Shown: positions 1,017 to 21,462 of the stretch, in pieces
Position numbering within the stretch: position 1 is the first letter of the stretch
Layout of the letters: each line of letters opens with the position of its first letter
Origin: a virus
Taxonomy: Duplodnaviria > Caudoviricetes
IMG/VR virus record: IMGVR_UViG_2634166338_000002
Direction: 5' to 3' (one strand)
Length of the DNA: 64,000 bases
Program-made: the position numbers and the translations under genes
The notes under the pieces: model-generated
Database searches by the model: none
What the model was told of the DNA's origin: nothing
What the model saw: the letters and a program-made list of their open reading frames with translations, nothing else

Positions 1017-1292
1017 TCAGGAGGCGGTGGCGACGGTGGCGCTCAGGCGGCCGTTCTCGCTGGTGGCCCAGCTGCCGGTGATCATGTATCCGGCATAGCG
1101 CCGCAGGATGCGCTCGGCCTGGGCCGTGGCGGTCCGCTGCCACAGCCGCAGCATGTGCGGGTCGATCTTGAAGCCGGTGCGGTCGCCGTCAATATCGACG
1201 TGCAGGTACGGGGTGCCGAGGGTGTCGAAGGTGATCTCGGCGGTCGTGGTCTCGGTTGCGGTGGTGGCGGCGGGCAGGGCGGCGATCGACAT
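1017..1292 (-). CDS. Hypothetical protein, family shared with 6618-7205 and 7331-7765
   Basis: GAGAAAGG RBS before ATG at 1292; motif PYLHV...FKID...ILRR..GY..TGSWA. Confidence 0.8.
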   Translation of the reverse strand: MSIAALPAATTATETTTAEITFDTLGTPYLHVDIDGDRTGFKIDPHMLRLWQRTATAQAERILRRYAGYMITGSWATSENGRLSATVATAS

Positions 1293-1556: not shown

Positions 1557-3449
1557 TCAGATCTGGAGTTCCTTGATCACGGCCGACCACAGCAGCGCGG
1601 GATCCGTGTCGTCGTCCGCGTCCGCATTTCCCGCATCCGTGCTGCTCGCGTCCGGGTGCTGCGCGACCTGCTCGCGCTGGCGGCGGACGAAGCTGTACAG
1701 CCCGTCCCAACCGTCGTGGCCGGGCACGACGTGGCGGGGGTGGTAGTTGTCGCCCGCGTCGATCAACCGAGCGGCTAGGGCGTAGTCACCGGCGGTCACG
1801 GCCTGTAAGACTCGCTCGACCACCGCGTCGGCAGCGGCCGCCCGGTCGAACGCCGCGTCGGGCTCGGGCACGAACCCAGGGTGGTCGATCGGGTTGCACT
1901 CGATGTCTACGCACTTCACGGTGTGCGCGCACACCGCGCAGCAGCCGATCCGGTCCGCCTCCTGTTTCAGCTGCACCCAGGGGCAGGTGAACAGGTGGAA
2001 GCACACCGGGCAGGTCACCCGTGCTGGTTCGAGCCCGTACACGTGGGACGAGGTGTCACCGTCGGGCAGGTCGATCCGGCCACACCAGCACGGGTTGGCG
2101 ATGCCCTGCCGCCCGTTGCCGTGGTCGACCAACCTCACCGTCTCCGCCCGGACATGTCTGCGGCCCTGCGGCGCCGCATGATCAATCAGCGCCAGAGTAG
2201 GCGCGACCGTCTCGGAAGAGGACCCGTCGTGGAGCGCGATCACGTGAGACGGGCCGGGGCAGGTGTCGGGCTCCTCCATGGCCTCCCATTCGTCGCGCGC
2301 CTTCCCGCACAGCGGGCAGAACGGCAGCATGACGTAGCGGCCCCAGTAGTGGCCGCCTGTTCCTGCCTGCGGCCCGAATGCTTCCTGCTGGCATTCGGTG
2401 CACGCGGCCGGGTGCCCGTCGTGACCTTGCTCGCTGTGCCGGTAGGCGGCCACCTGCCTGCGGTAGTCGTACCGACGCCCGTAGCGCGCCCGCGTGTCGT
2501 TCCCGGCCAGGGCGAAACCGCCGTAGGCCGCCGTCCACCATCCGCCCCGACCGTCCGGCCGGTCGAGGAACCGGCTGTTGCCGTCCACGTCGACCACTCG
2601 CAGCGTGGACCCGTCGTTGGTGGACGCCTCGTTGACCTCGACGAGGCCGAATTGCACGTGCTTGACGTTGAACCCGATCGGCGGATGCTTCAACTGCCAC
2701 CAGCCGTTCGCGGCCGGCGCCGCGAGTGTCTGCTCGTCGACGAGGCGCTCGACGGCCTTGATGATCGCCTCGGCGATCTGGTGCTCCCGGGCGTAGCGCT
2801 GCTCCAGAACGCAGGTGTCGCCGACGTAGACGACCGTGTAGGTATCCTGGCATTCCAGCCGTGACGCCCGTGACTCGTACGTCAGCACCCGCACCGGCAG
2901 GATGCCCACGGTGAATCCGATCCCGTCAACGCGGCGCACCGGCGCGCTCGACCAGCCGTTTTCCGCTACCCGGCCCTCCACGACCGGCAGCCCGCTGCCC
3001 CGGCTGACCCGTTCCATCACCTCGCGGGCGTGACTGACCACCCCGTTCTCGGCGGGGTGCTTCTCCGCCGGGACCGATACGACGTGGCGGTCCAACGGGG
3101 TGGTCACCGGCGGGCGGCCCTCGCAGCTCACCAGTTCACATGCCGGGTCGCCGGCGAGGTGCGTGCACCCCTGCGGCTTCGGCGGGATGGTCACCCACGC
3201 CTGGCTCGGCACGTGCCGGACCGGCGAGTGCTTCGGACCTTGCCGGTGTTCCACTGCGGTCTCGTCCACGCCGAAATACGCAGCGATCGCCCGCGTCAGC
3301 GCGCCGGTGTCGGCCCTGCCGCCCACCAGCGGCACTCTCACGTCCGCGACCGCCTGGCCACGGTCCCACGCCTGCCAGCGCACGCTACTGCGGTTGCGGG
3401 TCTCGTCGATCCCGACCTTGACCTGCACCTGTTCCTGCTCCTTCATCAT
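1557..3449 (-). CDS. 630-aa Cys-rich multi-module hypothetical protein
   Basis: Long ORF with GAAGGA RBS and several CxxC motifs; C-terminal GDYxxAxxLIDxG...H...GW module shared with the DnaN fusion. Confidence 0.85.
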   Translation of the reverse strand: MMKEQEQVQVKVGIDETRNRSSVRWQAWDRGQAVADVRVPLVGGRADTGALTRAIAAYFGVDETAVEHRQGPKHSPVRHVPSQAWVTIPPKPQGCTHLAGDPACELVSCEGRPPVTTPLDRHVVSVPAEKHPAENGVVSHAREVMERVSRGSGLPVVEGRVAENGWSSAPVRRVDGIGFTVGILPVRVLTYESRASRLECQDTYTVVYVGDTCVLEQRYAREHQIAEAIIKAVERLVDEQTLAAPAANGWWQLKHPPIGFNVKHVQFGLVEVNEASTNDGSTLRVVDVDGNSRFLDRPDGRGGWWTAAYGGFALAGNDTRARYGRRYDYRRQVAAYRHSEQGHDGHPAACTECQQEAFGPQAGTGGHYWGRYVMLPFCPLCGKARDEWEAMEEPDTCPGPSHVIALHDGSSSETVAPTLALIDHAAPQGRRHVRAETVRLVDHGNGRQGIANPCWCGRIDLPDGDTSSHVYGLEPARVTCPVCFHLFTCPWVQLKQEADRIGCCAVCAHTVKCVDIECNPIDHPGFVPEPDAAFDRAAAADAVVERVLQAVTAGDYALAARLIDAGDNYHPRHVVPGHDGWDGLYSFVRRQREQVAQHPDASSTDAGNADADDDTDPALLWSAVIKELQI

Positions 3450-3544
3450 CGGTCCTTCGCTCGCTCGTGGGTGCTAGGCGGGAGGCCGGGTCGTGACGCG
3501 CCCACCGGGGACGCGACACGACCCGGCCGTGGCAGTGGTGCAGG

Positions 3545-6484
3545 TCAGCCGACGCGGGCCGGAACCACGTCCGGCAGGGCCGTGAGGACGGCCCGGTCGA
3601 CGGTCGCGTTGGCCGCCGTCAGGGCTCCGGCGGTCGCGAACCGGATGCGCAGCCGGTACGGCCGCTCCGCCTTCTCCACCTCGACGCTCGGCATGGCCGC
3701 GATCACGCCGTCCCGCTTGGCGTCGACCAGCCGGTCGAGCACGTCTTTGCGCAGCGCCCTCAACCGGGTTCCGGCCGGAAGCAGCCACACTCGCTCTCCG
3801 CCGGTGGTGCTCGGAGCCGTCATCCCGAACTTCGTCCAGTTCGACGTGCCAGTGGCGGCCGCAGCCGTCCGGGCCGGGGCCGGGCTGGGCACCGCAGCGG
3901 CTGCACGGCGCGGCGCGGGAACGGTGCGCTGCGGCTGCTCCGGCTTAGCGGCCGCCGGGCGGGGTGCCGTCTGCCGCGGCATCGGCGCGGCCGCCGCGGT
4001 AGGTGCTGCCGCCATCGCGGCGGCCACCGCCGCCTCGATCACCTCTTCCGGGTGCCCGGCCAGAGCCTCCCGCAGCCGCTGCGCCACCGGGTTGCCCTCG
4101 ATCGGGGCCGCCTCCTGCTCACGCTCAGCCACCGTCTCCGGCCCGGTCTCCGCGCTGCCGTGCGTAAGCTCGTCGGCGGCGTCCGTCTCCTCGGTGTCGG
4201 CCACCGCCTCGGCGGCGATGTCCGCGAGCGCCTGCTTCTCGGTGTCGGCCGCGATCTCCGCCTCGACCTGCTTCGCCAGGATCGCCTCCTGGATCGTCTC
4301 CCACCCGTAGGTGAGGCCGCCGCCACGGAAGAGGTGGGCGGGGGCGTTCTGCATGCCCAGGTCGATGAGTTCGAGCGCTCCATCGAAGTCGCCCATGCTC
4401 AGCCGGTTGAACGCCTGCAACGACGTCGCCTTCGGGTCGAACTTCGGCTCACCGCCCACGATCACCGGCGCCTGCTCCTGTGCCTTCACCTGCTCGCCTC
4501 CCACCTCGTTCACGGCCGCCGCACCCTGCGGCGGCCACACGCCCTGTGCCGTGTGCGCCGGAATGGACGCCGCGAGAGCGCACAGCTTCATCCGCTCGGC
4601 CTCCTCCGCGCTTCGCACGGCCACGTACATCCGCTTGCCGTCGGGGGTGTCGGCGACCAGCACGCCCGTGGTCGTGTCCTCGCCGAAGACCCGGACCGCC
4701 GTCATTCCCGCTTGCACGGTCGCCTCCGTGACCATCTGCCCGCCGCTGCGGGCGGTCAGCTGAAGGACCGCCATCCACACCGGCCCGGCAGCCAACGCCG
4801 TCTGCTTGGTCTCCTTCGCCGCTGCGGCCCGGCCGCCGTGCACCTTGGCGTTGCGGGTGGTCCCGCAGACACACTTCGTGAACGGGTTGGTCTTCCTGCC
4901 GTCATCGACCGCCCGTTGGAACGGGTGCGGGGTGGTCCGGTCCGGCGCCGCCGCGCTCGGCTTCGGCACGGCGGCGCCCTGCCCGCTGATGTCCGGCTGC
5001 CCGGCCGGTTTCGCCTGCGGCCCGTCGCCCAGCATGGCGGCGCTCTCCTGAGACGCGGAGGCGTCATCGGTCGGCTCGGCCGCCGCCCCCGCCGCGTCTG
5101 CCTCGGCCGTCTCCGGGCCAGTGGTCAGCGCGGGCGGGATCGCGATGCTGTCCTTGGTCTCGCCGATCCGGATGGGCATCTGGAGGTTCGTCACGCCCGG
5201 CAGCGGCTGCCCGTCGCGGTCCAGTGGCACGGCTACGAACGGCTTGTACGGGTCGACGAACCGCAGGCGCACCCGCTTCGACCCGGCGGTCTTGAGCGTG
5301 TCGGCCAGGTAGTCGGGGTTCGCGCCGACGACCATGCCCGCGCCCACCCTCGCCAGCGCATCCGCCGTCTGCTGCCCGGCTTCTGCGACCTTCCGGTCGC
5401 GCACCTCCTTGGGGTCGCGGGAGTGCCTCTTGCGCGCCTGCTTCTCGGCCTCTTTGACCGCTGCCTTCACGGCCGCAGCAGTTTCCTTCGGTGTGCCCGT
5501 GACGAACGTGAAGTCGGAGAACGTCTCGCTCGCGGCCCCGTCCTCGTCGGTGCCGCCACCGACGGTGAATGTGTCCGGCCCGAACTCCATCAGCACCGGC
5601 AGCGCCCGGGTGAGAGCGACCTGCACCCGCTCGATGGTGCTGATGAGCGAGGCCACGTCCACGTCGACGTCGAGGACGAACGCTTTCGGCACCAGCGACG
5701 CCACCGGCGGGTAGGTGCCCCCGTCGAGCGTGCGTGTCACCACTCGCATGGTCGCGTTCTCGATGCCGAACCAGCCCGCACCGGGGCCCTTGGGGTCGTA
5801 CCCGAGCGTGACGTTGGGGCTCTGGCCGATCGTCTTGGTGACCTCCGTGAGCAGCTTCGCAGGCACCAGGGCGGTGAACTTGTCGACGTCGTTGGCCCAG
5901 TCGAGGTCCCGTACGGTCACCCGGTAACGGTCGGTGGCGACCAGGTGCAGGGTCGTGCCCTCACCACGCAGGTGGATGCCGGTCAGCGACGGCAGCGTCT
6001 CGTCGGTGCCCGCGAATCTGGTCGCCTGTGCAACCTGGTCGGCCAGCGCCTTGCCGTCGACCAGGCCCATCAGGGGCGGCATGTCCGGCCGGGTCGGGTA
6101 GTCCTCGACCGGCATCGTCGGCAGCGTGTATGTGGTCTTGCCATTGGACAGCCGTGCCTGCACACCCTCGCCGGCGAACGCGATGGGACGGTCCTTGGCG
6201 AGCACCTTCACCCGTGTGAGCAGGTTGGCCGCGCTCACCAGCACCGTGCCGGGCTGCGTGCACGTCGCGCCGGGGAGCGTGACCGTCCGCGACTGGTCGT
6301 AGTCGAACGCCTCGATCGTGACGGTCTCGCCGTCGCTGGTCAGGATCACGCCCGCGAGGACGGGAACCGGCGGCTTCTTCGGGATGGCCCTGCCCACGAA
6401 CGTGAGCGCGGCCAGCAGTTCTGGCTGCGGAACGACGAACGTCAGGTGGCCCTCCACGGGCGCCTGATTGTCGGTGGTGGACAT
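3545..6484 (-). CDS. dnaN: DNA polymerase III beta sliding clamp fused to a C-terminal extension of about 540 aa
   Basis: Beta-clamp motifs: PVPVLAGV, AFDYD, LPTMPVEDYP, LPSLTGI, VATDRYR, YP, NPDYL, MPIR. Confidence 0.92.
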   Translation of the reverse strand: MSTTDNQAPVEGHLTFVVPQPELLAALTFVGRAIPKKPPVPVLAGVILTSDGETVTIEAFDYDQSRTVTLPGATCTQPGTVLVSAANLLTRVKVLAKDRPIAFAGEGVQARLSNGKTTYTLPTMPVEDYPTRPDMPPLMGLVDGKALADQVAQATRFAGTDETLPSLTGIHLRGEGTTLHLVATDRYRVTVRDLDWANDVDKFTALVPAKLLTEVTKTIGQSPNVTLGYDPKGPGAGWFGIENATMRVVTRTLDGGTYPPVASLVPKAFVLDVDVDVASLISTIERVQVALTRALPVLMEFGPDTFTVGGGTDEDGAASETFSDFTFVTGTPKETAAAVKAAVKEAEKQARKRHSRDPKEVRDRKVAEAGQQTADALARVGAGMVVGANPDYLADTLKTAGSKRVRLRFVDPYKPFVAVPLDRDGQPLPGVTNLQMPIRIGETKDSIAIPPALTTGPETAEADAAGAAAEPTDDASASQESAAMLGDGPQAKPAGQPDISGQGAAVPKPSAAAPDRTTPHPFQRAVDDGRKTNPFTKCVCGTTRNAKVHGGRAAAAKETKQTALAAGPVWMAVLQLTARSGGQMVTEATVQAGMTAVRVFGEDTTTGVLVADTPDGKRMYVAVRSAEEAERMKLCALAASIPAHTAQGVWPPQGAAAVNEVGGEQVKAQEQAPVIVGGEPKFDPKATSLQAFNRLSMGDFDGALELIDLGMQNAPAHLFRGGGLTYGWETIQEAILAKQVEAEIAADTEKQALADIAAEAVADTEETDAADELTHGSAETGPETVAEREQEAAPIEGNPVAQRLREALAGHPEEVIEAAVAAAMAAAPTAAAAPMPRQTAPRPAAAKPEQPQRTVPAPRRAAAAVPSPAPARTAAAATGTSNWTKFGMTAPSTTGGERVWLLPAGTRLRALRKDVLDRLVDAKRDGVIAAMPSVEVEKAERPYRLRIRFATAGALTAANATVDRAVLTALPDVVPARVG

Positions 6485-6487: not shown

Positions 6488-6620
6488 TGGGGAACCTCCA
6501 GATGGGTTGCGCCCGGCCGTGCCTGACCGGGCGGAACGGGATGTCGAGCGGGTTGGCCCGGCACCACTCGACGACCACCGGCCCGCACACGGGCCGGTTG
6601 TCGCCGGGCAGCGCCGGTCA
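6488..6620 (-). repeat. Intergenic leader repeat copy 1 (stop codon, two hairpins, RBS)
   Basis: Near-identical to 7205-7333; partial copy at 7765-7820. Confidence 0.9.
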
Positions 6621-7205
6621 GTGGTGTCGGGCGTGCAGGACCAGTTGCCGGTCGGGCAGGGCCAGCACCTTCGCGAAGTCGCAGGTGGGTGTGCCTTTCA
6701 CACGGATGCCCGAGCAGCCGTGGTGGCGACAGGCGTACGAGGTGAACTGGCAGTCGCAGCTGCGGTTCACGCACGTCTCGCAGCGGCCTGCCATCGCTCG
6801 AATCGCGGCCGTGTAGGTGCCCAGGCCGGGCGCGGGCAGCCATTCGCCGTCGAGGGCGAAGCCGCAGTGCCGTGCCAGGTCGACCTCGGCGCGGGTGAAG
6901 ACGTCCGTCATGTCGAAGCGCCCACGCCTGCGGATGACCGCGTTCATGTCGATGCGCCGCCGGTCGATCGCGTCGCCGCTGCCGATCTCCAGACTGGGTT
7001 CGATGCGGCCGCCGGTGCGCCGACGAAGCAGACGGGCGGCCCTGCGGGCGGCGGCGGGCAGCAGCGTCCCCGGCCGTTGCGATTCGGCGACCAGACGGGC
7101 CAGGTCGACTCGCACTCGCCACGTGAAAGAGCCGATCTCCAGGTGCAGGAGATCCAGGGTGCCCGTGTCGAGGAGGGCGTACATCTGCTCGGGTGTGTCG
7201 TTCAT
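6618..7205 (-). CDS. Hypothetical protein with C-terminal Cys cluster
   Basis: GGAGG RBS, ATG at 7205; GRCETCV..C.C...C.H.GC motif shared with 7331-7765. Confidence 0.8.
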   Translation of the reverse strand: MNDTPEQMYALLDTGTLDLLHLEIGSFTWRVRVDLARLVAESQRPGTLLPAAARRAARLLRRRTGGRIEPSLEIGSGDAIDRRRIDMNAVIRRRGRFDMTDVFTRAEVDLARHCGFALDGEWLPAPGLGTYTAAIRAMAGRCETCVNRSCDCQFTSYACRHHGCSGIRVKGTPTCDFAKVLALPDRQLVLHARHH

Positions 7206-7333: not shown

Positions 7334-7765
7334 GCGGCGACTCCGGTTTCGCGGGATCGCGGTGAGCACCGCGACGCCGGGGCAGGTGTTCGCTCGGTCC
7401 GGGGTCCGCTGGCCCCGACATCCGAGGTGCTCGCAGCCGTCGCTTCCGGCCCGGCATTCGCAGCGGGACACACACGTCTCGCAGCGGCCCGGCATCTCCG
7501 CGATCGGGACCGTGAATGCGTTCCGGTCCGTGCTCGTCCGCGCCCAGCTGCCGGTCGGCGCGTAGCCGGTCTTGCGGCGCAGCAGCCGGACCGCCTCGGT
7601 GGCGACCGCGCTCACCAGCGAGCCCCGGCTGCGGGTGATCACGCGGGCGAGGTCGACGCGGAACTGCACGGTGGCGAAGCCGACGGTCACGTGCAGGCAC
7701 GGGTCGGTGTGTGGGTTGGTCAGGGTGGCCGTCCAGGCGTGGGCGGACACGGTGGCGCTGATCAT
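7331..7765 (-). CDS. Hypothetical protein with C-terminal Cys cluster (paralog)
   Basis: AGGAGG RBS, ATG at 7765; FRVDLAR...RLLRRKTGY.PTGSWA...GRCETCV. Confidence 0.8.
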   Translation of the reverse strand: MISATVSAHAWTATLTNPHTDPCLHVTVGFATVQFRVDLARVITRSRGSLVSAVATEAVRLLRRKTGYAPTGSWARTSTDRNAFTVPIAEMPGRCETCVSRCECRAGSDGCEHLGCRGQRTPDRANTCPGVAVLTAIPRNRSRR

Positions 7766-8596: not shown

Positions 8597-9421
8597 TTAG
8601 GCGACGCTGGCCACTGCCGCGATCATCACGGCGTCAACGTCGGTGGACACCGCCCCGCCGTCGTGGCCGTAGGCGACCAACGTGCGCCCCTCTTTGCGGA
8701 CGCTCACGCCCTTGACCTTCGCCCGCGACAGCGCCTGCCGCGCGGCCTTTGCCGCAGCCGCGATGGGCACACCAGCCGCAACCGTGAGCACGCGCTCACC
8801 CTCACTGGTCACGGCCACGCCACCCGCCGTGGCCTTGCGGGTAGCGGGCTTCACCGCAGCCGGGACGGGCTTCGCCGTCGCGCCCCTGCGGGTGGCGGGC
8901 TTCGCCGTCGCGGTCTTCGCCAGCGTATTCGCCTTAGCGACCGCCGCAGCGACCGCCGCAGCGATGATCTCGGCGTCGACCCCATCCGCGACTAGTGCCG
9001 CCGTAATCGTCTCCGCCAGCGTCGCGCCGGTGACGGGCTGCACCGCAGCCGGGGCGGGCTTCGCGGCCGCCCTGCGGGTGGCGGGATTCGCCGCAGCCGT
9101 CGCACCCTTGCGGGTGGCGGGCTTCGCGATCGCGGGCTTCGCCGCCGCGCCCGTCAAGTCGATCACGTCGACGCCGTGCTCAGCGAGCGTCATGATCACG
9201 TCATCGGCCGTGAACGCGCTGTCGGTGGTGGGCACCCAACCGCCGTTGTCGCGGTCCCACTCCCAACCGAAGCCGTGGCGGTTCATGAGCCGACGTGCCT
9301 GCCCGGGCTTCCCGTCCTCGCGGAGCCCATCGATCATCCACGGGAGGCCGGTCAGGATGGGCTGGCCGTCCGCTCGCAGGGCGAGGGTCGTGATCTTCGC
9401 GGTGGTGGTGGTTGCAGCCAT
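8597..9421 (-). CDS. Ala/Lys-rich histone H1-like repeat protein with C-terminal domain shared with the DnaN extension
   Basis: GGGAGG RBS, ATG at 9421; repeats of AKPATRKGATA; C-terminal GERV...AG...AK..GV module. Confidence 0.8.
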   Translation of the reverse strand: MAATTTTAKITTLALRADGQPILTGLPWMIDGLREDGKPGQARRLMNRHGFGWEWDRDNGGWVPTTDSAFTADDVIMTLAEHGVDVIDLTGAAAKPAIAKPATRKGATAAANPATRRAAAKPAPAAVQPVTGATLAETITAALVADGVDAEIIAAAVAAAVAKANTLAKTATAKPATRRGATAKPVPAAVKPATRKATAGGVAVTSEGERVLTVAAGVPIAAAAKAARQALSRAKVKGVSVRKEGRTLVAYGHDGGAVSTDVDAVMIAAVASVA

Positions 9422-9511: not shown

Positions 9512-9806
9512 GCCCTAGGCGGCTAATTTGTGACTCACGACACAACAAAATGCGGGCAAAGGTGTACCAAAGGTGAGGCTCGCGTATAGGCCTACGCGTA
9601 CGTAGGGGCGGGGGTGCCCCTGCCCCCGCGTGTACGGGTGCCGCCCGGAAGGTTCGGCATCCCGCCGTCCGGACGGGATAGAAAACTTTGAGACCCGAAA
9701 TTTTCGGGGTCAACGTGTCGCCCCGGTGGCGATCGCTAAGCGGAGACGGTTCGGGCCGGGCATTTTTCGTTCGCGGACGCTCGTCCTAGAGTGCTCCAAT
9801 AGCGGT

Positions 9807-11501
9807 GTGAACCTTGACCTTGGTGGCGAGCAGCGGTCGGAAGAGCCTGGCGGTCAGGCCGATCGACGAGAAACTGACGTTGACTTCCCGCTTCTGATTC
9901 ATGTGCTCGGCGAGCCCTTCGTCAAGTGGATCCTGGTGGCACCGTTTGAGTTGCCCTCGCCGGGACAGCTTGAGGTGGCGGCAGCACTGACGCGCTTCGT
10001 TCGTGAAGGCAGTGCTGATCATTCCGGCCGGTCGGCAGACCTCGTGGGTATGCGTCTGTCGTTCTACGTGCCTGCGTGGAACGCGACGTTCGTCGAGGGC
10101 TTGCGTCAGCGTGCTGGCGGACAGCCGGCTGAGGCTGAGGCTTCCGAGGACGATCTGCAGAATGCTGTCGTCGACCTGGCGGCGCAGAGTTATGGGCAAC
10201 TGCTTCTGCCTGCAGGGTTCACCGGTCCTTCGCTGTCTGCCAACCTGATGTCGCCGGCTGGTGCTCGGGTCGTGGCCGCGGTCCGGGCCGACGGCATCTT
10301 TCCCGGCGCTGACGACGACTGGGGGTCGGAGTCAATAGTCCTCGGAACAACTCTGGGGACCGCGCAGGGGCAACAGGCTGCCATCTTCGGTAACCACGTT
10401 CTGCTGGCGGCTTGGGATGCGGTGAGGCTCCGGGTTGAGGGCCCGACTTTAGAAGAGTATCTATCCGCAGTGCGGCAGATGCTGACTCAAACCCGTGCAC
10501 TCTTGCGTGGGGAGGAGGTGCTCGTCCCGTCCCTTGTGGGTTTCACCGGCATCGTCGTTGATCAGGATGTCGAGGTTGTCGGATCTTGGGGCCGACTCCG
10601 CTCCGCTCGTCCGAGCGACCTCCCCTCTTTCGCGAGCAGCATGTCCGAGCGGCGCATCAACACGACTACCGAAACGGGTGAGCACATCGAGATCACCGAC
10701 GCCGGTGATGTCGTCCTGGAGACCCGCATCCCTTACCGAGTTCGAATCCAGTCCCCTGACGAAATGATCATGGAGGGAACGACCACGGTCGGCCTGGAGG
10801 CATTAGTTGAGCAGGCCCGAATCTGCTTGGCGTTGTCCTGGGATGGGGATCAGATACCCGTCGTGTTGCCGACCTGGCGCCGCACGATCTCCTTCATGAC
10901 CTCGAGTATCGGCTACTGGACCGATCCGCAGCACTCGGCACCAAGACATCCCACCAAGGCAACGCGGGCCCAGATGGATGCATGGGGCTCCTGGCTCGGC
11001 ACTGTGGACACGGAAGCGTTGTCTCATGTCAGGCTTGCCGCAACCAGGACGTTACGCGCACTAACTGAACGACGTGTTCAGGACGACATGCTGATCGATG
11101 CAGTGATCGCCTGGGAATCGCTGTTCGGAGCCAAGACCGAGAGCACTCTTCGCGTATCCGGCGCCCTGGCCTGTCTTCTCTACCCGCCGGGGGCAGACAG
11201 AGAAGCCGCCCAGAAGAGATACAGCAAGATCTACAACTCGCGGAGCGAGATCGTACATGCGAGTCTTACCAAGAAGACGACGCCGGAGGTCATCGCTGAG
11301 AACGCCCGAGAGGCGGCCCAGGTTGCCATCCGGGCACTACGGGCGATCCTTGACACTCGACGCGACCTGATCACCCTCGACAGCGCCAGTCGCGGTCTTC
11401 AGCTACTGCTTGAGGGCTCTTTTCCGCAAGCGGCGGACGCCGAGACTCTGACGTCCGAAGCCGCCTCCGGCGATGGCTCCGCGATTGATGCCAACGGGTG
11501 A
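9807..11501 (+). CDS. HEPN-domain protein (ApeA-like), putative defence RNase
   Basis: C-terminal LIDAVIAWESLFG...IYNSRSEIVH with RxxxxH motif. Start uncertain (frame open from 9630). Confidence 0.75.
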   Translation: MNLDLGGEQRSEEPGGQADRRETDVDFPLLIHVLGEPFVKWILVAPFELPSPGQLEVAAALTRFVREGSADHSGRSADLVGMRLSFYVPAWNATFVEGLRQRAGGQPAEAEASEDDLQNAVVDLAAQSYGQLLLPAGFTGPSLSANLMSPAGARVVAAVRADGIFPGADDDWGSESIVLGTTLGTAQGQQAAIFGNHVLLAAWDAVRLRVEGPTLEEYLSAVRQMLTQTRALLRGEEVLVPSLVGFTGIVVDQDVEVVGSWGRLRSARPSDLPSFASSMSERRINTTTETGEHIEITDAGDVVLETRIPYRVRIQSPDEMIMEGTTTVGLEALVEQARICLALSWDGDQIPVVLPTWRRTISFMTSSIGYWTDPQHSAPRHPTKATRAQMDAWGSWLGTVDTEALSHVRLAATRTLRALTERRVQDDMLIDAVIAWESLFGAKTESTLRVSGALACLLYPPGADREAAQKRYSKIYNSRSEIVHASLTKKTTPEVIAENAREAAQVAIRALRAILDTRRDLITLDSASRGLQLLLEGSFPQAADAETLTSEAASGDGSAIDANG

Positions 11502-11630
11502 ATGTTTTCCGACCGCCATCGCTCCGCTTCGCTGCTGACCGACAGGCGGAGCGAGACTGAGATCGTGCCGGTCCCGGCTGCTGCACGGCCGACGTGGCGC
11601 CGGAGTCGACTGATGGCAGAGGATGGTCGG

Positions 11631-12110
11631 ATGACTCCCAGGATGATCTTCGCAGGAATAGCCATTTGTGCTCTGGTGGCCGGCTGCGGCGGTCAGACCG
11701 ACGCCGCCGATGGCACACGCTCTGCCGCTGCGGGCGAGACTTCGGTTCCGGCGGCCGGTACTGCCGCCAGTTCCGACACGGCATCACCCACTGCCGTCGC
11801 CGTCGATGCGCAGAACGAGTTGAAGGCCGCGGTTCAGGCTTACAGCGACGCCTTTCTTACCGGCGACCCGAAGGCGGCCTACGAACTGCTGTCGCAGCGG
11901 TGTCGGAAGCGGCACTCGCTGGCCGAGTTCACCTCCATCGTCAGCGCGGCCGAGCAGATGTACGGCAGTGCGCTGCCGATTGAGACCTTCTCGGCGCAGG
12001 TGTCGGGAGATCTGGCCAGAGTGACGTATACCTACTCGGTCAAGGCGATCAATCAAGATTCTGAGCCCTGGGCCCGCGAGCAGGAGAGTTGGCGCCAGGA
12101 CGATTGCTGA
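11631..12110 (+). CDS. Lipoprotein with NTF2-like domain
   Basis: Signal peptide with LVAGC lipobox; AV.AY..AF..GD...AYELLS pattern. Confidence 0.75.
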   Translation: MTPRMIFAGIAICALVAGCGGQTDAADGTRSAAAGETSVPAAGTAASSDTASPTAVAVDAQNELKAAVQAYSDAFLTGDPKAAYELLSQRCRKRHSLAEFTSIVSAAEQMYGSALPIETFSAQVSGDLARVTYTYSVKAINQDSEPWAREQESWRQDDC

Positions 12111-12243
12111 TCGCCTGAGGTCGGACGACACCTTCCTCGCCAAGCCGTTCACCGCTGACGAACTGGCCGGCACGATCCGCACCCTCCCCGCCGCTGGCGC
12201 TCGCCGGCACCTCACGCGATGGCGGTACCCGGCGGTCTGTGCG

Positions 12244-12432
12244 TCAAGCGATCAGGGCCGCCACCGCGACCGCGAGGCCTAGAGCCGCACCAGAGGCTGA
12301 ACCGCCGACCAACACCGCGCGGGCCAAGCGGGAATCGTCCAGCCACGACAACCAGCCAGCGACAGCGCCGACTACCACCGCTGCAAGCACCGCCACCGCA
12401 ACGTACAACCCGACAACCGTGAGCTTGTCCAC
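12244..12432 (-). CDS. Small two-TM membrane protein
   Basis: Two hydrophobic segments; GTG at 12432. Confidence 0.5.
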   Translation of the reverse strand: MDKLTVVGLYVAVAVLAAVVVGAVAGWLSWLDDSRLARAVLVGGSASGAALGLAVAVAALIA

Positions 12433-12668
12433 CGAGGATCGTCCTCTTTCGTTTGCCCGTCGGCCCGGCATCGCGCCGGGCCTGTTCCCTACGGGCATGG
12501 CCAAAGGCTCCAGTACCGCCAGCCCCAGAACAAACGGCCTTCTGACCGATCAGCCGCGCCTCGGACTCGTGAAGCCGCAGGTCACAGGACTGGCCATTCT
12601 CTCCGACGCAGCCTTTACAGCCACGAACTTCTTGGTGCGGCTGATCGGTCACGATAACTTCTTCACCC

Positions 12669-13655
12669 GTGAACATCCGTGATCGGAAACGCCATCGCGC
12701 CCGCGCCACCACGCTGCTCACCCACGCGAAGGCGTACGACCACGCGCAGGCCCGACTGCACCAGATCCACCACGCCGGCGGGCAAACGCCCCAGCGCTAC
12801 CTGATCCGCCGAGCCCTCGTCCGGGCCCGCACCCCAGCTGCGGACCGACCTGTGGTGGCCTCACCGGCCGCGGCACTCGCCCCGATGAAAGGCTGGGCCC
12901 TGCACCTGTACCTGATCGCGATCTTCGAGGCACAAGCCCGGCTCACACCCGCCTTCGCCGTCAACAACGACAGACCGCTGCTGTACGGCACCCGCCAGGC
13001 GGCCGCCTGGGTCGACCTGCTCCCCACCATCACCGACACCGTCCCCCGTTCGGCAGGAATGCGACGCCAACTCGTCCGTGCCCTGGCCTTGCTCCACCGC
13101 GAACACCTGGTCGGCCTCCGCAGCCGCATCGGCGCACGAGGCAGGTACGAACGCTTCGAGCTTCGCCATGAGGACGGTGAATCTTGGTCGCCCGTCTACA
13201 CCATCCCGCGAGGCGACTCCACCAGCGCCAGCGAGCCGCTCTGGATCCGGCCACCAGGACCCGTCGCCGGACGCACCGCGGTCGTCGCGCTTCCCGCCAC
13301 CTTCTTCCTCAACGGGTGGGCGCACGTGCTGTCCGCCGCGGAGATCACCACCTACCTGATGCTCTGCGATCTTGAAGCCCGCTACCCGCAAGCTCGTGCC
13401 GGCGGGGTGTACCTGACCGATCCCCAGCGAGAGGCCTGGTATGGCATCCACCGCGACGTGTACGCCACCCACCGGCAACTATCCGCATTCGGGCTCATCG
13501 AACGCCTCGACGACCCGGACCGGCGCCCGGACGGAACGATCACCCGCGGAGCCGGCCAGCAGATGCGGCAACCATATCGATTCCGAACACTGCCCCAGGG
13601 CTTCAGCCAACCGGCACGAATCACCGTGGCCCACCACCTCACCGAACACCAATGA
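12669..13655 (+). CDS. Hypothetical protein, possibly frameshifted at its 5' end
   Basis: 328-aa ORF; the upstream frame from ATG at 12497 joins it if one C at 12666-12668 is removed. Confidence 0.65.
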   Translation: MNIRDRKRHRARATTLLTHAKAYDHAQARLHQIHHAGGQTPQRYLIRRALVRARTPAADRPVVASPAAALAPMKGWALHLYLIAIFEAQARLTPAFAVNNDRPLLYGTRQAAAWVDLLPTITDTVPRSAGMRRQLVRALALLHREHLVGLRSRIGARGRYERFELRHEDGESWSPVYTIPRGDSTSASEPLWIRPPGPVAGRTAVVALPATFFLNGWAHVLSAAEITTYLMLCDLEARYPQARAGGVYLTDPQREAWYGIHRDVYATHRQLSAFGLIERLDDPDRRPDGTITRGAGQQMRQPYRFRTLPQGFSQPARITVAHHLTEHQ

Positions 13656-13879
13656 CAGACGCCTGGACTGCTGGTACGGAACTCAAAAACGATGCTGACG
13701 TTGACGGCCGGTTCGGGTGGGTCCTTCCGCTTGAGTGCGGTGGCCGTGTTTCGATCCTCATGCCCGGGTCTGATCTTGCGGCGATCCGGGACGATCCCTC
13801 CGCGCTGACATACTGCGTCCGGGTCCGTGGGTGCTGGTGGTGGTGGCGTGATGCCATCGGCATGGCTATTCCGCTCTAG
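13652..13879 (+). CDS. Small hypothetical protein
   Basis: ATGA overlap with the previous stop; protein-like composition. Confidence 0.55.
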   Translation: MTDAWTAGTELKNDADVDGRFGWVLPLECGGRVSILMPGSDLAAIRDDPSALTYCVRVRGCWWWWRDAIGMAIPL

Positions 13880-14242
13880 CCTGGCCGATGGGAACCAAAG
13901 TGTTAGCGGTTCCTGAGGCAACTCGATGCGGCGGGTGGTGCGTGGTCGGCGGCCCATGGCGTCTCGGAAATCTTCGAGGTCAGAGTGATCAGGTGCCCAA
14001 CGCTCTCATGAAGGCCCAGATCTTGCTAAACGGATTAATGCAAATATTGCTGTTGGGCCTCGCACTAGACGCTTTAACCAGCAATTAGATAACACGGTCG
14101 ACGAAACCTGTATACCCACTAGAGTTCCCGCCAGGACCTGCGGCTAACAGGTGTACTCATGTTGCCCGCTGGCTGGCTCGTGAGTGCGGCCGAAAGGGCG
14201 ACCGTCCGATCGGCGACGACTGCAAGCAATCGGAGGTAATCG

Positions 14243-15088
14243 GTGTCGCGATCGAACCAGGCCACGTGGCGATGTGCTTTCTGCGGCAATCCGGGTTCCA
14301 AGTCGGCTGAGCATGTCCTGCCGCAATGGCTGCGGGCCGGTACGGCGCCGTTGCCCATGCAGCGCACCTCCTATTGGACCGGATTCGGGTTACGAGACGA
14401 CAAACAGGCTTACGCAAGCGTGGACCCGGCGGTTCGGGAATCGCGGAACTCCATGCTCCACCAGACCACGCGCGCTGTCTGCGTGAGCTGCAACAACGGT
14501 TGGATGAGCCGCCTCGAAACGAAGGTGAAGCCCATCATGGAGTCGCTGTTTCACTCGCGACGAACCGGCAACACGTTGACCCTACCGCCGGCCGAAGCCT
14601 CGACTCTTGCTCGCTGGGCAGTAAAGACGTCCTGGACAGCAGAGCTGTCTGGTCTGGGCAATCAGAACCAAGATCAGACCTGGCTCTCTCCGCACGCTTT
14701 GAAGCAGTTCGCCTCGCGCGATGTGCCGCCAACTGTGTCCTGGGTCTGGCTCGCCTCTCATCAGGATCTCGACCGGGTCGAGCAGATGCAGGCCCATGTC
14801 GCGATTGACCGGACCAGCCCGCCTGCTCCCGGAGAGGCTGCTCGGCGTCTGCATGCCAGTGCCCTGGTCATCAACGGCATCGTCCTGGTCGTCTACAACT
14901 TCGAAAGCCGCGAGCACTTCCCGCCACCGTTCCGCCCCATGCACGGACTGCGGCTCTGGCCCCGTCCCACAGCGGTGGAGTTTCCGCCCCCTGAGGTAAG
15001 CCATCAGGAGGTCACCGGAGCGATCGCGCACTACGGGCACTGGTTTCCGCTGCACAACCGCGCTTTCGACCACAGCACGCGCATCTGA
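14243..15088 (+). CDS. HNH-like Zn-finger nuclease domain protein
   Basis: CAFC...EHVLPQW...VCVSCNNGWM; GGAGG RBS. Confidence 0.7.
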   Translation: MSRSNQATWRCAFCGNPGSKSAEHVLPQWLRAGTAPLPMQRTSYWTGFGLRDDKQAYASVDPAVRESRNSMLHQTTRAVCVSCNNGWMSRLETKVKPIMESLFHSRRTGNTLTLPPAEASTLARWAVKTSWTAELSGLGNQNQDQTWLSPHALKQFASRDVPPTVSWVWLASHQDLDRVEQMQAHVAIDRTSPPAPGEAARRLHASALVINGIVLVVYNFESREHFPPPFRPMHGLRLWPRPTAVEFPPPEVSHQEVTGAIAHYGHWFPLHNRAFDHSTRI

Positions 15089-15150
15089 TCGACGGAGCCG
15101 TCGCGGTTCACCCCCGGCCGGCGCCAGATGGTGCACTAGGCTGCCCGGCC

Positions 15151-15735
15151 ATGACCTCCGCGTTGGCCGTCGCCGCGTTGTTTATCAGTCTCGTGGCTTT
15201 GGCGGTTGCATGGTGGAACGGCAACTCCGCCCGCCGGTCGGCAGACGCCGCCGAGGGGGCACAGCAGGCCGCAGATCGATCTGCCGACGCCGCGAAGGAC
15301 TCTGCCGAAGCAGCGCGGCAGGTCGCCTCGGCGGAACTCGAACGCGATCACGAGTCGTACCGCCCCGACCTTAGTCAGGCGAAGTTCGCCTATCCGCGTA
15401 GTCGGCCGAAGCCGCCTTTCGAGTACACCTTCGTGCCGTCACGGCGCTACCGGCTGCGGGCGTACGCCGGGAAGGCGGGGGAGCCCATGCGTGACCTGAC
15501 CGATGGCAACTTCCGAGCCATCACCTCGGGTGTTTCGGTATCGATCGCGGCTGCCGAGGCCGGAGCCGAGGCGCATCCGGATTTTCTCCTTCTGCAGTTT
15601 TGGCCGCCCGCGCCCGCAGCCGGGGAGGAAGTGTGGATGTGCCCGTGCGGCCGGCCGACTGAGCCGTCGGAGCAACCGCATTGGGATATGCGCGTTGAGG
15701 TGCCGCGGAAGCGGGGCAAGGTGGTGGTGTTCTGA
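15151..15735 (+). CDS. Membrane-anchored hypothetical protein
   Basis: N-terminal TM helix followed by SA..AA repeats. Confidence 0.65.
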   Translation: MTSALAVAALFISLVALAVAWWNGNSARRSADAAEGAQQAADRSADAAKDSAEAARQVASAELERDHESYRPDLSQAKFAYPRSRPKPPFEYTFVPSRRYRLRAYAGKAGEPMRDLTDGNFRAITSGVSVSIAAAEAGAEAHPDFLLLQFWPPAPAAGEEVWMCPCGRPTEPSEQPHWDMRVEVPRKRGKVVVF

Positions 15736-15815
15736 TGTCCTCTGCGGCAGTAATCACCTCCCATCTCTTACTAGTTAAGCCGTGGAGCGCCCGACGAGTT
15801 GGGCATCACGGTTCG

Positions 15816-16349
15816 CTACCGGCCGGGCGGAGTGAGCCTGGACTGCTGATCCGGAGCCTGCGGGTCGATCACGGTCAACCCGACCTGGGCGAAGCCCTCG
15901 ACACTCGCTTCGGAGTCCTCGTCGGTCCACCAGCGGGCGATGGCGTCGCGCAGCGCATGGTCGGCGACCGGAGAGAGTCGGCCGACGTACTCAAGGAGTT
16001 CTTTCTCGTCGACGTCCCACTTGCGGCCGTACGACGCGAGGTCGGGCACGGGGGTGTCGCGGGCGATCGTGAACCCGTCGGCCAGGGACATATACACCGT
16101 GCCACCGAGTGTCGCGTCGATCGCCGTGCCGGTGAGGACGTCGGCGATGCAGGACGCCTGCGCGACGGTGAGCCGGATCCGGCGTAGCTCCAGGGCCAGC
16201 GCGGAGCGCCAAAGGCCTAACTCAATCACTGCTTGCTGGTGGTGACTGGGTGTGAACATGCGTTCGGTCCGGCCTTTGAGCCAGGCCGCGGTTTCAGGGT
16301 TGCTGATACGTGCCTGGATGCGGTTGTCAGGCTGCTTGTCGTCGACCAT
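15816..16349 (-). CDS. Hypothetical protein, possible DNA-binding regulator
   Basis: AAAGGA RBS; 177-aa ORF downstream of 16428-17198. Confidence 0.7.
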   Translation of the reverse strand: MVDDKQPDNRIQARISNPETAAWLKGRTERMFTPSHHQQAVIELGLWRSALALELRRIRLTVAQASCIADVLTGTAIDATLGGTVYMSLADGFTIARDTPVPDLASYGRKWDVDEKELLEYVGRLSPVADHALRDAIARWWTDEDSEASVEGFAQVGLTVIDPQAPDQQSRLTPPGR

Positions 16350-16427
16350 CTCAGTCAGTTCCTTTCAGGCCGTTAAATCGTTTAGGCAACGGGTCTCGGG
16401 TGCGAGCATTCGGGAGCGGACGGCGAG

Positions 16428-17198
16428 TCAGTCGCCGGTTCCCCAGACTCCGCTGCGGCCGTGAGCGTAGGCGCGCTGCTGGAGAAAACGGACCGGGTGG
16501 TCGAGCCGGAGCGCGCGGTGGGTGCGGCCGTCGTCAGGATGGTGGGTGAGCAGCCGATTTGTGGCGTCCCAGTGGTGGGAGGTGACCCGTCGTCCGTCGG
16601 GGTCTTTGCGCCAGTCGTCGCCGAGCCATCCGGTCGGTGCGTCGTGTGCCCGGCTGGTGGCGATGGCGTAGATGTCGCCCTGCCGGTCGATCTGTTTGCC
16701 GGCGGCGAGTGCTTTGGTGACGGCGGCGGGCGTGAGCCAGGTGAGTGCGGCGGTCACGGTGGTGACGGTTCCGGGTAGACGGACGGCCCAGTCGCCGGCG
16801 TCGTCGTGTCCACACAGGTACGACAAGCTAGCGCGGCGGGAGCCGTAGGCGCGACTGTAGTAGCGCCAGCCCTCGACGTGCAGCACGACCAGGCCGGCCT
16901 CACGGTCGACGAGTCGCAGCGGCAAGGTGCGCAGCGCTGACGCCTTCTCGCCGGACTCGATGCCAGTCTCGCCACCGCGGCGCGCGATCTCTGCGGTGCA
17001 CCGGACGGTCAGTGCTGAGACTAGGCGGGAGGCGAGATCCGACGGCGGTGAGGCCACCTGCCGCGCCGTTGCCCGAGCCCGGCGGAGCTTTGCGATGGCG
17101 GTCTTCGATCGCGCACCGGGAAGATTGGATGCGCGAAGCGCGTCGGCGAGCGCGGCCGGCGAGTCAATCACTGCGGGACTCAGAACAGTGGTGGACAC
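16428..17198 (-). CDS. Hypothetical phage-type protein
   Basis: GGAGAGG RBS before GTG at 17198; RQGD motif. Confidence 0.7.
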   Translation of the reverse strand: MSTTVLSPAVIDSPAALADALRASNLPGARSKTAIAKLRRARATARQVASPPSDLASRLVSALTVRCTAEIARRGGETGIESGEKASALRTLPLRLVDREAGLVVLHVEGWRYYSRAYGSRRASLSYLCGHDDAGDWAVRLPGTVTTVTAALTWLTPAAVTKALAAGKQIDRQGDIYAIATSRAHDAPTGWLGDDWRKDPDGRRVTSHHWDATNRLLTHHPDDGRTHRALRLDHPVRFLQQRAYAHGRSGVWGTGD

Positions 17199-17262
17199 GG
17201 TCCTCTCCAGCTTCATCAGGAGGTTCTTGAGGTTGCGCGATCGGAGGGGATCAAGCAACACC

Positions 17263-17293
17263 ATCGTATGACATAAGTCTACATTCGTCTACA
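17263..17293 (-). promoter_or_regulatory. Promoter TAGACG-N17-TACGAT overlapped by a TGTAGAC direct repeat
   Basis: GTCTACA at 17277-17283 and 17287-17293. Confidence 0.55.
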
Positions 17294-17598
17294 GCTGTAC
17301 TCGACTGGAGGGCGTGGCGGCGCTGATCGGCACGACGTACCGCGATGAGGTTGAGCGTGCTGATCCCCAACCGCGTGGGGCGGCGCGGATGCGAGTCGGG
17401 CGGTCGCCCCGCGGAGGGCTTTTGCGGAGGTCGTGCGATGTACGTCGGCGCCCCGGCTGGCGCTGGCCGGCGTGGGCTTATGTCGGGTGCCGTGGAGGTC
17501 GAGGGGGATGACCGGGCGCCGCTCCCACGTCAGAGCTCGTAGCTCGGGATTTACTCAGGCGTCTCCGGTCACCCTCCTCGGCCTCCGCAGTGATCCTG

Positions 17599-18843
17599 CT
17601 ATTCGGGCTGTCGTGCGCGGGGAAAGGCGAGGTGTTCCTCGAAGTGGGCGCCCGCGGTCAGGCAGTGATGCAGGCCGGTGAGCAGGCGTGTGCTGACGCG
17701 GCGCAGCGCCCCGGCGTAGGTGTCGCCGGCGGCGCGGCGCTGGTCGTAGCGGGCGCGGGCGCCGGGGGATCGGGTCAGGGAGCAGAACGCCCATTGGTGG
17801 CAGACGGCTTTGAGGCGCCGGTTGCAGACGTATCGGTGGGCGACCTGGCTGCTGTTGCCGCTGGACCAGGTCAGCGGGGCGATCCCGGCGTAGGCGCGCA
17901 GACCGCGCGCGGTGGCGAACCGTCGGGGGTCGTCGCCGAGTTCGGCCAGGAGCCGGGCGCCGCCGAGGGGGCCGCAACCGGGGAACGACAGATAGATCGA
18001 GGCGTGCGGGTGTTGGAGGAACGCGTCGGTCAGTTCGGTCGTGAGCTGGTCGGTGGTGTTGCAGGCGTGGTTGAACTGGTTCAGCAGGGCGCGGACTTCT
18101 ACGGCGGTGGCCTTCTCGATTTCGCGGGGTAGCCGCAGGACGGGTTGGGCGAACAGGTCGCGTAACCGGTAGGCCTCGTCGTCGACGAGCCTCAGCCGGA
18201 CCGGTGCGAGGATCTTGGAGAGGCGGTACTGGGTCAGCCGTGCCGCGGCTTCTGCCGTCGGGCCGGCCTCAAGGACCGTCCGGGCTTCGAGTCGGCGCAG
18301 CCCGAAGTCGCGGCCTTCCCAGGCGATCAACGCGGTGGGATGGACCTGGTGCAGCAGCCGGCGAAGTTTCGCCTGCAACTGCTCGCGCAGCAGCTGGGAC
18401 CGGTACTGGGCACGGGCCAGCACGGTGATGGCCTCGGCGACGGGACTTGTGGCCGGTAGGGGCTGGAGTTCGCCCCACTTGTCGCGTAGCAACCTCGCCA
18501 GTAGCTCGGCATCCGAGCGGTCGGCCTTCTTCCGGGTCACCGACCGGTAGGCGCGGAATCGGGCCATGTCGCTCGGCGGGATCTGGAAGACGGTCTGGCC
18601 GCGGGCGCGCAACGCCTGGACCAGCAGGCCGCCGTTGGTCTCGATCGCTATCGGGACCTGCTTGCGGCTGTGCTGGTGGCCGGCGAGCAGCCCGGACAGC
18701 AGCGTGAACAGCTCACGCAGACCATCGGGGGAGGCGGCGATCCGTAGGTGGTGCACGGTGGTGCCGTGGGCGTCGATCACCGCGGCGTCATTGAGCCGGT
18801 CGGCCCAGTCGATCCCGCAGTAGAAGCGTGGTGGCCGTTGCAT
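17599..18843 (-). CDS. IS110-family transposase/recombinase
   Basis: DEDD residues in GIDWA, IAIET and KKADRSDA; C-terminal FPGCG...LLAELGD...YAGIAP.T.SSG. Confidence 0.93.
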   Translation of the reverse strand: MQRPPRFYCGIDWADRLNDAAVIDAHGTTVHHLRIAASPDGLRELFTLLSGLLAGHQHSRKQVPIAIETNGGLLVQALRARGQTVFQIPPSDMARFRAYRSVTRKKADRSDAELLARLLRDKWGELQPLPATSPVAEAITVLARAQYRSQLLREQLQAKLRRLLHQVHPTALIAWEGRDFGLRRLEARTVLEAGPTAEAAARLTQYRLSKILAPVRLRLVDDEAYRLRDLFAQPVLRLPREIEKATAVEVRALLNQFNHACNTTDQLTTELTDAFLQHPHASIYLSFPGCGPLGGARLLAELGDDPRRFATARGLRAYAGIAPLTWSSGNSSQVAHRYVCNRRLKAVCHQWAFCSLTRSPGARARYDQRRAAGDTYAGALRRVSTRLLTGLHHCLTAGAHFEEHLAFPRARQPE

Positions 18844-18849
18844 GCAGGT

Positions 18850-19105
18850 CTCCTATCCCGGGCACGGTGGGGTGGCTTCAGCCGAACCGCCGAGATGACG
18901 CGGATCGCCGCCGAATACGACTGAACTCACCGCTGCCGGCGAAGTGCCGGTGGGAGTCATGTCGTGCGGCAGCAGGCCGCTGTTACTCGGGCAGCTGCTG
19001 AAGTGAGCACCCCCGCGTGGGCGGGGAAGAGGAGCACCGTGACCGACAGCTCGGTAGGTCACGGCAGGGACCGCTGTTCTGTGGAAGAACGCTCTCGTCC
19101 GATAT
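18850..19105 (-). ncRNA. Candidate IS110 bridge/seek RNA region
   Basis: Hairpin-rich non-coding region 5' of the IS110 gene, preceded by a -10-like TACAGT at 19113-19108. Confidence 0.45.
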
Positions 19106-19467
19106 GGACTGTAGCGAACGGTCCGCCGCGACTGCCACCTTGATCGGCACCCGGGTTCGGTCGCTGAGGGGCGGGTGCCGGACGCGTCGGTGATTACCGT
19201 GTGCGCGCTGGGGCGGCGGATCGGCTTGGTTCGCTGCCGCCCGGGCGATCATGCGTGCTTGGTTCGGGTGGCGTGTGGAGCCGAGCGGCGGCCATCGCGT
19301 GGGGGAGAAACCTTGCGATAGAAAGACCGCCGCCCGGCGTCCTACAGGGTAGAGATGCAGACGGAACGGCAGGTTGGCCGGACCTGACTCAACCGCCTGG
19401 CCGAACCAGTGACGCCAGGGCTAGCTGATCGGTGATCGACTCCGTCGCGCGTCGCCACCGCGGTGCT

Positions 19468-20940: not shown

Positions 20941-21145
20941 GATCGACCGTGGGTGTTGAGTGACGGTGTTCGCTGGCTAGACCACAACCTGCGTGCTTTT
21001 TCGTCCGAACGAGCGTGGCGCTGTCAGCCGGGACACACCACTACAGACGAGGCATCTGCACTACCTATGCCCGCACGCTACCGCACCCGTGCCGGTCGGC
21101 CGTCGACTGTTCACCCCATCGTGGCTGGCGGTGCGCCCACTGGTC

Positions 21146-21173
21146 TTGACACAGCTTGTCGTAAAACTATAGT
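21146..21173 (+). promoter_or_regulatory. Promoter TTGACA-N16-TATAGT, probably a leaderless transcript
   Basis: ATG at 21181 follows the -10 hexamer after 7 nt. Confidence 0.65.
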
Positions 21174-21180
21174 CGTAGAA

Positions 21181-21390: not shown

Positions 21391-21433
21391 CCGTGCGCCG
21401 GCATGCCGGCGCCAATTCCTGGCGGCGAATCTC

Positions 21434-21462
21434 TTGACAGAGATCGCTAACTCACCCATCCT
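21434..21462 (+). promoter_or_regulatory. Putative late promoter TTGACA-N17-CATCCT
   Basis: -35 flanked by the inverted repeat ATCTC/GAGAT; upstream of the virion operon. Confidence 0.55.

Follow-up and report, generated by a model that had tools for sequence, protein, structure and literature searches.

A prophage-encoded beta clamp fused to a conserved modular arm, in an early operon in which several proteins share a C-terminal peptide

The window analysed here is a 64,000-nucleotide stretch of virus DNA (IMG/VR record IMGVR_UViG_2634166338_000002) that makes up most of a temperate siphovirus-type prophage of ~90 kb, carried by an Actinoplanes-like soil actinomycete. The subject of this study is one gene of its leftward early operon, P0002, which occupies positions 3545..6484 on the minus strand as one intact open reading frame (ORF) and encodes a protein of 979 aa, a beta clamp (DnaN) followed by a long C-terminal tail that is also called the arm below. 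The ATG start is preceded, 10 nt 5', by a ribosome-binding site, GGAGG (6495..6499, minus strand), and the GC content by codon position is typical of coding DNA, with a third-position value (GC3) of 0.91. A GC-rich stem-loop at 3484-3528 lies between the stop codon of the clamp gene and the ribosome-binding site of the gene that follows, which encodes a Cys-rich protein called F2.

The clamp part, its insert and the arm

The Pfam domains of DnaN were all found above their gathering scores, with the N-terminal domain at residues 15-131 (4.7e-28), the central domain at residues 145-259 (1.2e-13) and the C-terminal domain at residues 367-419 (6.5e-09). The fusion scored 173.5 bits against TIGR00663, for which the cut-off is 137.65, and PHROG 947 also matches the clamp part (residues 15-441). 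In an AlphaFold2 (AF2) model of the fusion built on 11 family sequences, the clamp part reached a predicted local distance difference test score (pLDDT) of ~70-90, and Foldseek placed it on solved mycobacterial clamps with an E-value of 2.7e-33 and a target template-modelling (TM) score of 0.81-0.85. Domain I spans residues 12-135 (6080..6451; Pfam PF00712, AF2 and Foldseek) and domain II residues 136-262 (5699..6079; PF02767), while domain III is divided into a first part, residues 263-331 (5492..5698), and a second part, residues 384-441 (5162..5335; PF02768), all on the minus strand.

The hydrophobic pocket for clamp clients, which lies between domains II and III and includes the C-terminal M-P-x-R strand, is present. 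At 22 client-pocket positions (defined by E. coli numbering), the residues are those of the chromosomal DnaN of Micromonosporaceae. These shared residues include T184, R186, Y187, R188 and P259 in domain II, N389, Y392 and P415 in the second part of domain III, and M436, I438 and R439 in the pocket end M436-P-I-R439. Because the host-type pocket residues are conserved, the clamp part has probably kept its ability to bind ordinary clamp-binding peptides, and also the host clamp loader. It appears to be derived from a host clamp, and it looks able to form a ring.

The chromosomal DnaN of Actinomycetota (that of Micromonosporaceae, and solved mycobacterial clamps such as 8djq, 5agu and 3rb9) has the same three-domain fold, the same pocket residues and the same M-P-x-R end, and provides the nearest stand-alone relatives. 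They come from Micromonospora, Actinoplanes and Plantactinospora and share 34-38% identity; for the dnaN that the genome itself carries, which encodes 377 aa and lies 174 kb away, the figure is 33%. Set against chromosomal DnaN, to which it is 33-38% identical, the fusion differs by a hairpin inserted into domain III, by the tail, and by being encoded in a prophage and not beside dnaA and recF. Beta clamps are documented in phages (PMC4889955), and the stand-alone clamps of actinophages and plasmids (PHROG 947; Arthrobacter phages, Waterfoul gp48, the dnaN of Streptomyces plasmids) are likewise mobile-element copies of the bacterial clamp. However, all of these stop at the clamp end, coverage of the fusion by phage or plasmid records does not exceed 44%, and the clamp part is closer to the DnaN of the host family than to the phage clamps among them. 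Whereas a plain DnaN has ~370-400 aa and ends at the pocket strand, this protein of 979 aa runs on for 540 residues past M-P-I-R and carries a 52-aa insert, and is for that reason a clamp-domain fusion rather than a plain DnaN.

The insert, residues 332-383 (5336..5491, minus strand), lies between the positions equivalent to 311 and 315 of E. coli beta. Comparison of the family profile with the sequences of the Protein Data Bank (PDB), among which clamps were the sole matches of the whole-family profile, identified it as inserted sequence that every solved clamp lacks. It is predicted to form two antiparallel helices (pLDDT ~84-89) and has a net charge of +5, which bears out a preliminary description of this stretch, made from its letters and ORF translations, that had pointed to a basic helical insertion of roughly 50 aa in domain III. 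The insert is kept in nine of the 11 aligned family sequences and missing in two, and its identity within the family is 0.28.

The same description had seen the protein continue past M-P-I-R through linkers, a small zinc motif and globular modules, and this picture of the tail held up as well. The tail consists of conserved small modules with variable linkers between them, all of which are given here with their minus-strand coordinates. Linker 1 (residues 442-515; 4940..5161) is acidic, disordered and variable, with a family identity of 0.17. It leads into an HCCH zinc-knuckle-like module (residues 516-556; 4817..4939) with a net charge of +6, in which the columns H520, F522, C538, C540, G541 and H549 are invariant across 11 sequences; H520, C538, C540 and H549 are putative metal ligands at short spacing, within a segment that AF2 modelled at low confidence. 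The four modules that follow, M1 to M4, fold with a pLDDT of 83-96. M1 (residues 565-652; 4529..4792) is a PII/ACT-like alpha/beta module, for which the match is a generic one (Z 6.7, root-mean-square deviation (rmsd) 3.2, 76 residues aligned). M2 (residues 673-767; 4184..4468) combines TPR-like helices with a long acidic helix, and VIA-align superimposed it on the last TPR and capping helix of FKBP51, Cpr7 and Ctr9 with Z 8.6-8.8 and rmsd 1.6-2.2 over 57-73 aligned residues, values that are within the chance range for helical pieces. M3 (residues 798-827; 4004..4093) is a helical hairpin, linker 4 (residues 828-878; 3851..4003) is basic and rich in Pro, Ala, Arg and Lys, and M4 (residues 879-979; 3548..3850) is a basic Pcc1-like alpha/beta module (Z 7.1, rmsd 3.1, 75 aligned). 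Charge varies along the arm: the zinc segment is basic, as are linker 4 and M4, and linker 1 and M2 are acidic.

Foldseek of the tail model against the PDB and BFVD returned nothing at E <= 0.001, VIA-align gave generic TPR-like, PII/ACT-like and Pcc1-like likenesses only, and the ESM Atlas held no usable match for the tail or for F2. No conserved clamp-binding motif was found inside the arm. Within the prophage, M3 and M4 were recognised in F5, a 274-aa early protein (8597..9421, minus strand): when a profile of the tail was compared with all 85 prophage ORFs, F5 was the sole outlier (P 7.7e-6, the next best being 0.007), and hhalign aligned the tail with F5 over M3, the basic linker and M4 (probability 70%, P 4.1e-5). 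That the distal arm is a paralog of the C-terminal half of F5 can be held with moderate confidence from these profile comparisons. The linkers of F5 are rich in Ala, Lys, Pro and Arg and resemble histone H1; F5 had no family hits, and a homolog search returned F5 alone. A likeness between M2 and the C-terminus of F2 that was noticed by eye (GD[FY]..A..LI) was rejected, as the P of 0.01 from hhalign does not reach significance when 85 comparisons are made.

When 5.8 billion proteins were searched with length matching, ~12 full-length relatives of 940-1198 aa were recovered. They align with the fusion from end to end at 40-54% identity, and their sources are Actinoplanes genomes and metagenomes from soil. 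It had been foreseen that a sequencing error might hide a stop codon after M-P-I-R, or that homologs might always be split into two genes. Neither was found: independent assemblies keep one continuous frame, the ~12 relatives keep the fusion, and no clamp-only ortholog was found, the nearest stand-alone clamps being the chromosomal DnaN proteins described above. A programmed frameshift past M-P-I-R, giving a short clamp, was also looked for, and neither the window gene nor that of the related phage L005 contains a slippery heptamer. Within the family, identity is 0.52-0.60 in the tail modules and 0.45-0.65 in the clamp domains, compared with 0.16-0.23 in the linkers. The fusion is real and, because the tail modules are conserved like the clamp domains while the linkers vary, it is by this comparison under selection.

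The family is rare. The tail alone, searched against 1.84 billion representative proteins, gave nine matches, all belonging to the same family and two of them being short pieces; a tail was present in one other species genome among 185,579, and no tail relatives were found in IMG/VR contigs, in 300 genomes belonging to the same bacterial family, or in phage or plasmid records. Since the insert is missing in two of the 11 aligned sequences and one relative has an extra linker-1 domain, the protein has a modular architecture, and linker 1 tolerates the insertion of modules. The relative in question, P0007 (locus L022:1011-4607), carries an extra domain of ~210 aa in linker 1, and another, P0008, carries an extra Cys-rich motif at that place. 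In the case of P0015, one of the two short pieces, which lies on a 3.7-kb metagenome contig, the last 311 aa of the tail form a separate ORF overlapping a preceding 634-aa ORF, the latter without a recorded Pfam hit; the 311-aa ORF may be a frameshifted copy, or it may have a different N-terminal partner.

The early operon and a shared C-terminal peptide

The operon that contains the clamp gene runs beyond the left edge of the window. In its adjoining 20 kb (locus L007, genome 7,676,640-7,696,639, directly left), it encodes an MTS-type methyltransferase, a 708-aa C5 cytosine methylase, a DUF3560 protein, a PAPS-reductase-like protein, a Mom-like protein and a DpdA-DUF6884 fusion, DpdA being a 7-deazaguanine transglycosylase. 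Because of this large DNA-modification set, the early operon suggests that the phage genome is multiply modified. The clamp gene had been described beforehand as sitting among early genes and not among replication genes, which was found to be the case: no replication family was matched by its neighbours, and a scan of ~60 ORFs turned up no polymerase, primase or helicase family. PADLOC assigned no defence family to the clamp or to seven neighbours.

Four unrelated families of the early operon, namely the MTS methyltransferase, DpdA, the DUF3560 protein and F2, end in a common peptide, D-P-W-x-x-[VL]-[LI]-x-[EQ]-[LM], which is called the tag below. In F2, this docking-type peptide lies at 1560..1607 (within the segment 1560-1649, minus strand) and consists of an acidic run followed by W-x-x-V-I-x-E-L. 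Further tagged C-termini are located at L007:15090-15179, 4060-4149 and 1177-1266 (minus strand), with orthologs in loci L006 and L019-L022. The tag is preceded by an acidic or Pro/Ala-rich stretch in DpdA, the DUF3560 protein and F2. MTS orthologs end in QLSLL (at the very end), QMELF or QLALF after a conserved D-P-W-G-x-V-L, and in one phage the tag of DpdA continues into QLGLF at the very end of the protein. An alignment of 16 C-termini from the four families and six phages showed the W to be invariant and the D to be near-invariant; a canonical clamp-binding motif is present in five of the 16, and the others have a variant with E for Q or a shorter one.

These tags recall the motifs of known clamp clients (QL[SD]LF or QLxLxL), which are short peptides at flexible ends, and several of the tags (QLGLF, QLALF, QLSLL and QMELF) are canonical. 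They differ from them in that the putative clients are DNA-modifying enzymes, and in that the tag adds a D-P-W-x-x-V-L extension and often has E in place of Q. As the mycobacterial protein ImuB uses QLPLWG as its clamp-binding peptide (PMC10421592), such peptides can be regarded as the normal currency of actinobacterial clamps.

The distribution of the tag was assessed with a regular expression that was written after the data had been seen, so that the figures overstate its significance: it matched the last 25 aa of 10 out of 62 early proteins and had zero matches elsewhere within their 17.8 k residues, against an average of 0.035 for shuffled sequences. Across the 10.65-Mb genome, eight ORF-like frames out of 10,611 were matched, of which five belong to the prophage and four to the clamp operon. 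At the level of sequence, the positional bias of the tag and its restriction to the clamp operon are plain.

The local gene order, consisting of a ~145-aa Cys-cluster protein, the clamp fusion, the Cys-rich F2, small paralogs, the MTS methyltransferase and the C5 methylase, was found again, back to back with the terminase, in six related loci. F2 has 630 aa (1557..3449, minus strand) and is always encoded directly downstream of the clamp gene. It matches no known family and possesses a conserved N-terminal core of ~200 aa with an invariant C-H-C-C pattern, and a variable, Cys-rich middle with an N-P-x-W-C-G motif recalling the zinc knuckle of the arm.

A putative clamp hub and the alternatives

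The protein had at the outset been taken for a repurposed clamp that acts as a decoy or poison for the host replisome, or that carries effector domains onto DNA. It is the second of these suggestions that was strengthened, by tail modules that are conserved like the clamp and by operon enzymes with clamp-docking-like tails. The explanation that I tentatively prefer, at slightly less than even chances, is that of a phage-private clamp hub which couples DNA modification to replication. Here, the host clamp loader would place the phage clamp as a ring on replicating phage DNA, and the loaded ring would be the phage's own landing pad. The tagged MTS methyltransferase, DpdA, DUF3560 protein and F2 would then dock on the clamp, such that new phage DNA would be modified during its synthesis. 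The acidic, floppy linker joins the clamp to a phage-specific arm carrying, in this order, the zinc-knuckle-like module, the PII/ACT-like module, the TPR-like module with its long helix, the helical hairpin, the basic linker and the Pcc1-like module. Present twice per ring, the arm may provide the tagged enzymes with a further point of contact, serve as an anchor to phage DNA or to DNA bound by F5, or do both.

DNMT1 on PCNA is an example of a clamp serving as a platform beyond replication. In phage T4 (gp45 with gp33/gp55) and phage Mu (MuC with host DnaN), a loaded clamp serves as a moving base through which a further DNA transaction is linked to replication (PMC12867686), as it would in the hub proposed here. 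The clamps of these three systems are unmodified and the motif is carried by the partner, whereas here the clamp itself also bears a large covalent arm.

Several observations weigh against such a hub. Apart from the post hoc nature of the tag expression, many tags carry E where canonical motifs have Q, the W-x-x-V-L part has a helix-like spacing unlike that of known clamp-binding peptides, and the C5 methylase and the Mom-like protein have no tag. The fold matches of the arm modules are generic (Z 6.7-8.8). The published precedent, a claimed link between the T4 alpha-glucosyltransferase and gp45, is disputed, since a 2025 preprint found that T4 glucosyltransferases did not bind gp45 (10.64898/2025.12.06.692756). 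Moreover, because the phage pocket matches that of the host, the tags could equally target host DnaN and thus do not alone explain a private clamp. A more specific version of the hub would be a private code in which an arm module reads the D-P-W-x-x-V-L half of the tag and the pocket takes the [EQ]-L-x-L-F half, so that the modifying enzymes ride phage clamps only. I consider this code doubtful; if true, it would amount to a self-contained modification factory on new phage DNA, orthogonal to the host clamp network.

The foremost alternative, though an unlikely one, is that the fusion is a plain replication helper, that is, an extra clamp for host Pol III whose arm merely anchors it to a phage origin, an initiator or the phage chromatin (F5), while the tagged enzymes use any clamp. 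The host-like pocket, the want of a recognisable prophage polymerase among the ORFs scanned and the basic, F5-like distal arm would fit this role, actinophages and Streptomyces plasmids commonly carry stand-alone beta clamps, and phage lambda raises translation of the host dnaN for its own replication (10.1101/2024.10.31.621285). Yet the supply of a clamp needs no conserved arm of 540 aa, no origin or initiator was identified, and a phage-specific tag on four enzyme families would be left unexplained.

Coupling to late transcription is improbable by comparison. With precedents in T4 gp45 with gp33/gp55 and in Mu MuC with the host clamp (PMC12867686), the arm would reach out to RNA polymerase or to a late activator, and loaded clamps would switch on the adjacent late operon. 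The early operon does lie back to back with the terminase and late operon in all relatives, and the arm is composed of small modules of the protein-interaction type, but scans with Pfam, PHROG and NCBIfam revealed no sigma-like, Mor/C-like or RNA polymerase-binding family, and the tag carriers are DNA-modifying enzymes and not transcription factors.

A similarly poor chance is given to the host-takeover decoy, in which the phage clamp would soak up the host polymerase, the clamp loader or other clients, or form dead-end complexes, and so shut down host replication or repair. A host-type pocket could bind host clients, which makes competition with the host clamp possible, and overexpression of Waterfoul gp48, a mycobacteriophage clamp subunit, was reported to be cytotoxic (PMC11797047). 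A decoy, however, needs neither DNA-encircling features nor a conserved arm, and mixed rings are unlikely at 33% identity to host DnaN. The operon context gives no hint of host shut-off, a fixed place in a replication and modification operon points to a constructive role, and this part of the earlier interpretation found no direct support. Finally, a misassembly or a functionless, decaying fused pseudogene is extremely improbable, since the one metagenome contig with a separate 311-aa ORF is set against twelve continuous full-length relatives from independent assemblies, the coding-typical GC pattern, the conserved tail modules and the ribosome-binding site.

Phage beta clamps are known but have been treated as replication spare parts, whereas in the proposed hub a clamp would have been turned into a scaffold with an arm of its own. 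If binding of the tags were confirmed, the hub would represent, in a bacterial virus, a clear counterpart of DNMT1 on PCNA, would explain how several modifications are placed on new temperate-phage DNA before host restriction acts, and would provide a small, testable system consisting of a single clamp and a few peptides. No relatives are known for the arm modules, F2, F5 and the small Cys-cluster protein F0, which makes them a source of new folds or functions.

Further features of the prophage

F0 is a Cys-cluster protein of ~140 aa encoded upstream of the clamp gene (7358..7765, minus strand), and it has paralogs at 6696-6950 and 1017-1409. Paralogs of this type, ~85-140 aa long and mostly with a C-terminal Cys cluster, are found on either side of the clamp gene in all related phages.

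A stretch of ~12 kb (window 9600-22000) that separates the early operon from the terminase has a lower GC content (0.63-0.66) and carries a transposase of the IS110 family (17599-18843, minus strand) along with ORFs that gave no family hits. It is probably inserted cargo, because it is absent at that place in the related phage L005. The large terminase (23920-25641) and the capsid (39264-40310) are accompanied by other late genes for a portal, a protease, a scaffold, a tape measure of 1760 aa, Dit, a Gp37-like tail protein and a lysin. Also found among the structural genes were a GDSL-lipase-domain protein (29131-30360) and a pectate-lyase-like beta-helix tail protein (34116-35693), which are likely cell-envelope-degrading virion enzymes. 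The tyrosine integrase is located ~28 kb left of the window, and to the left of it, on the host side, an ORF of 510 aa (L008:6475-8007) shows an unusual pairing of HTH_31/HTH_3 with a peptide deformylase domain.

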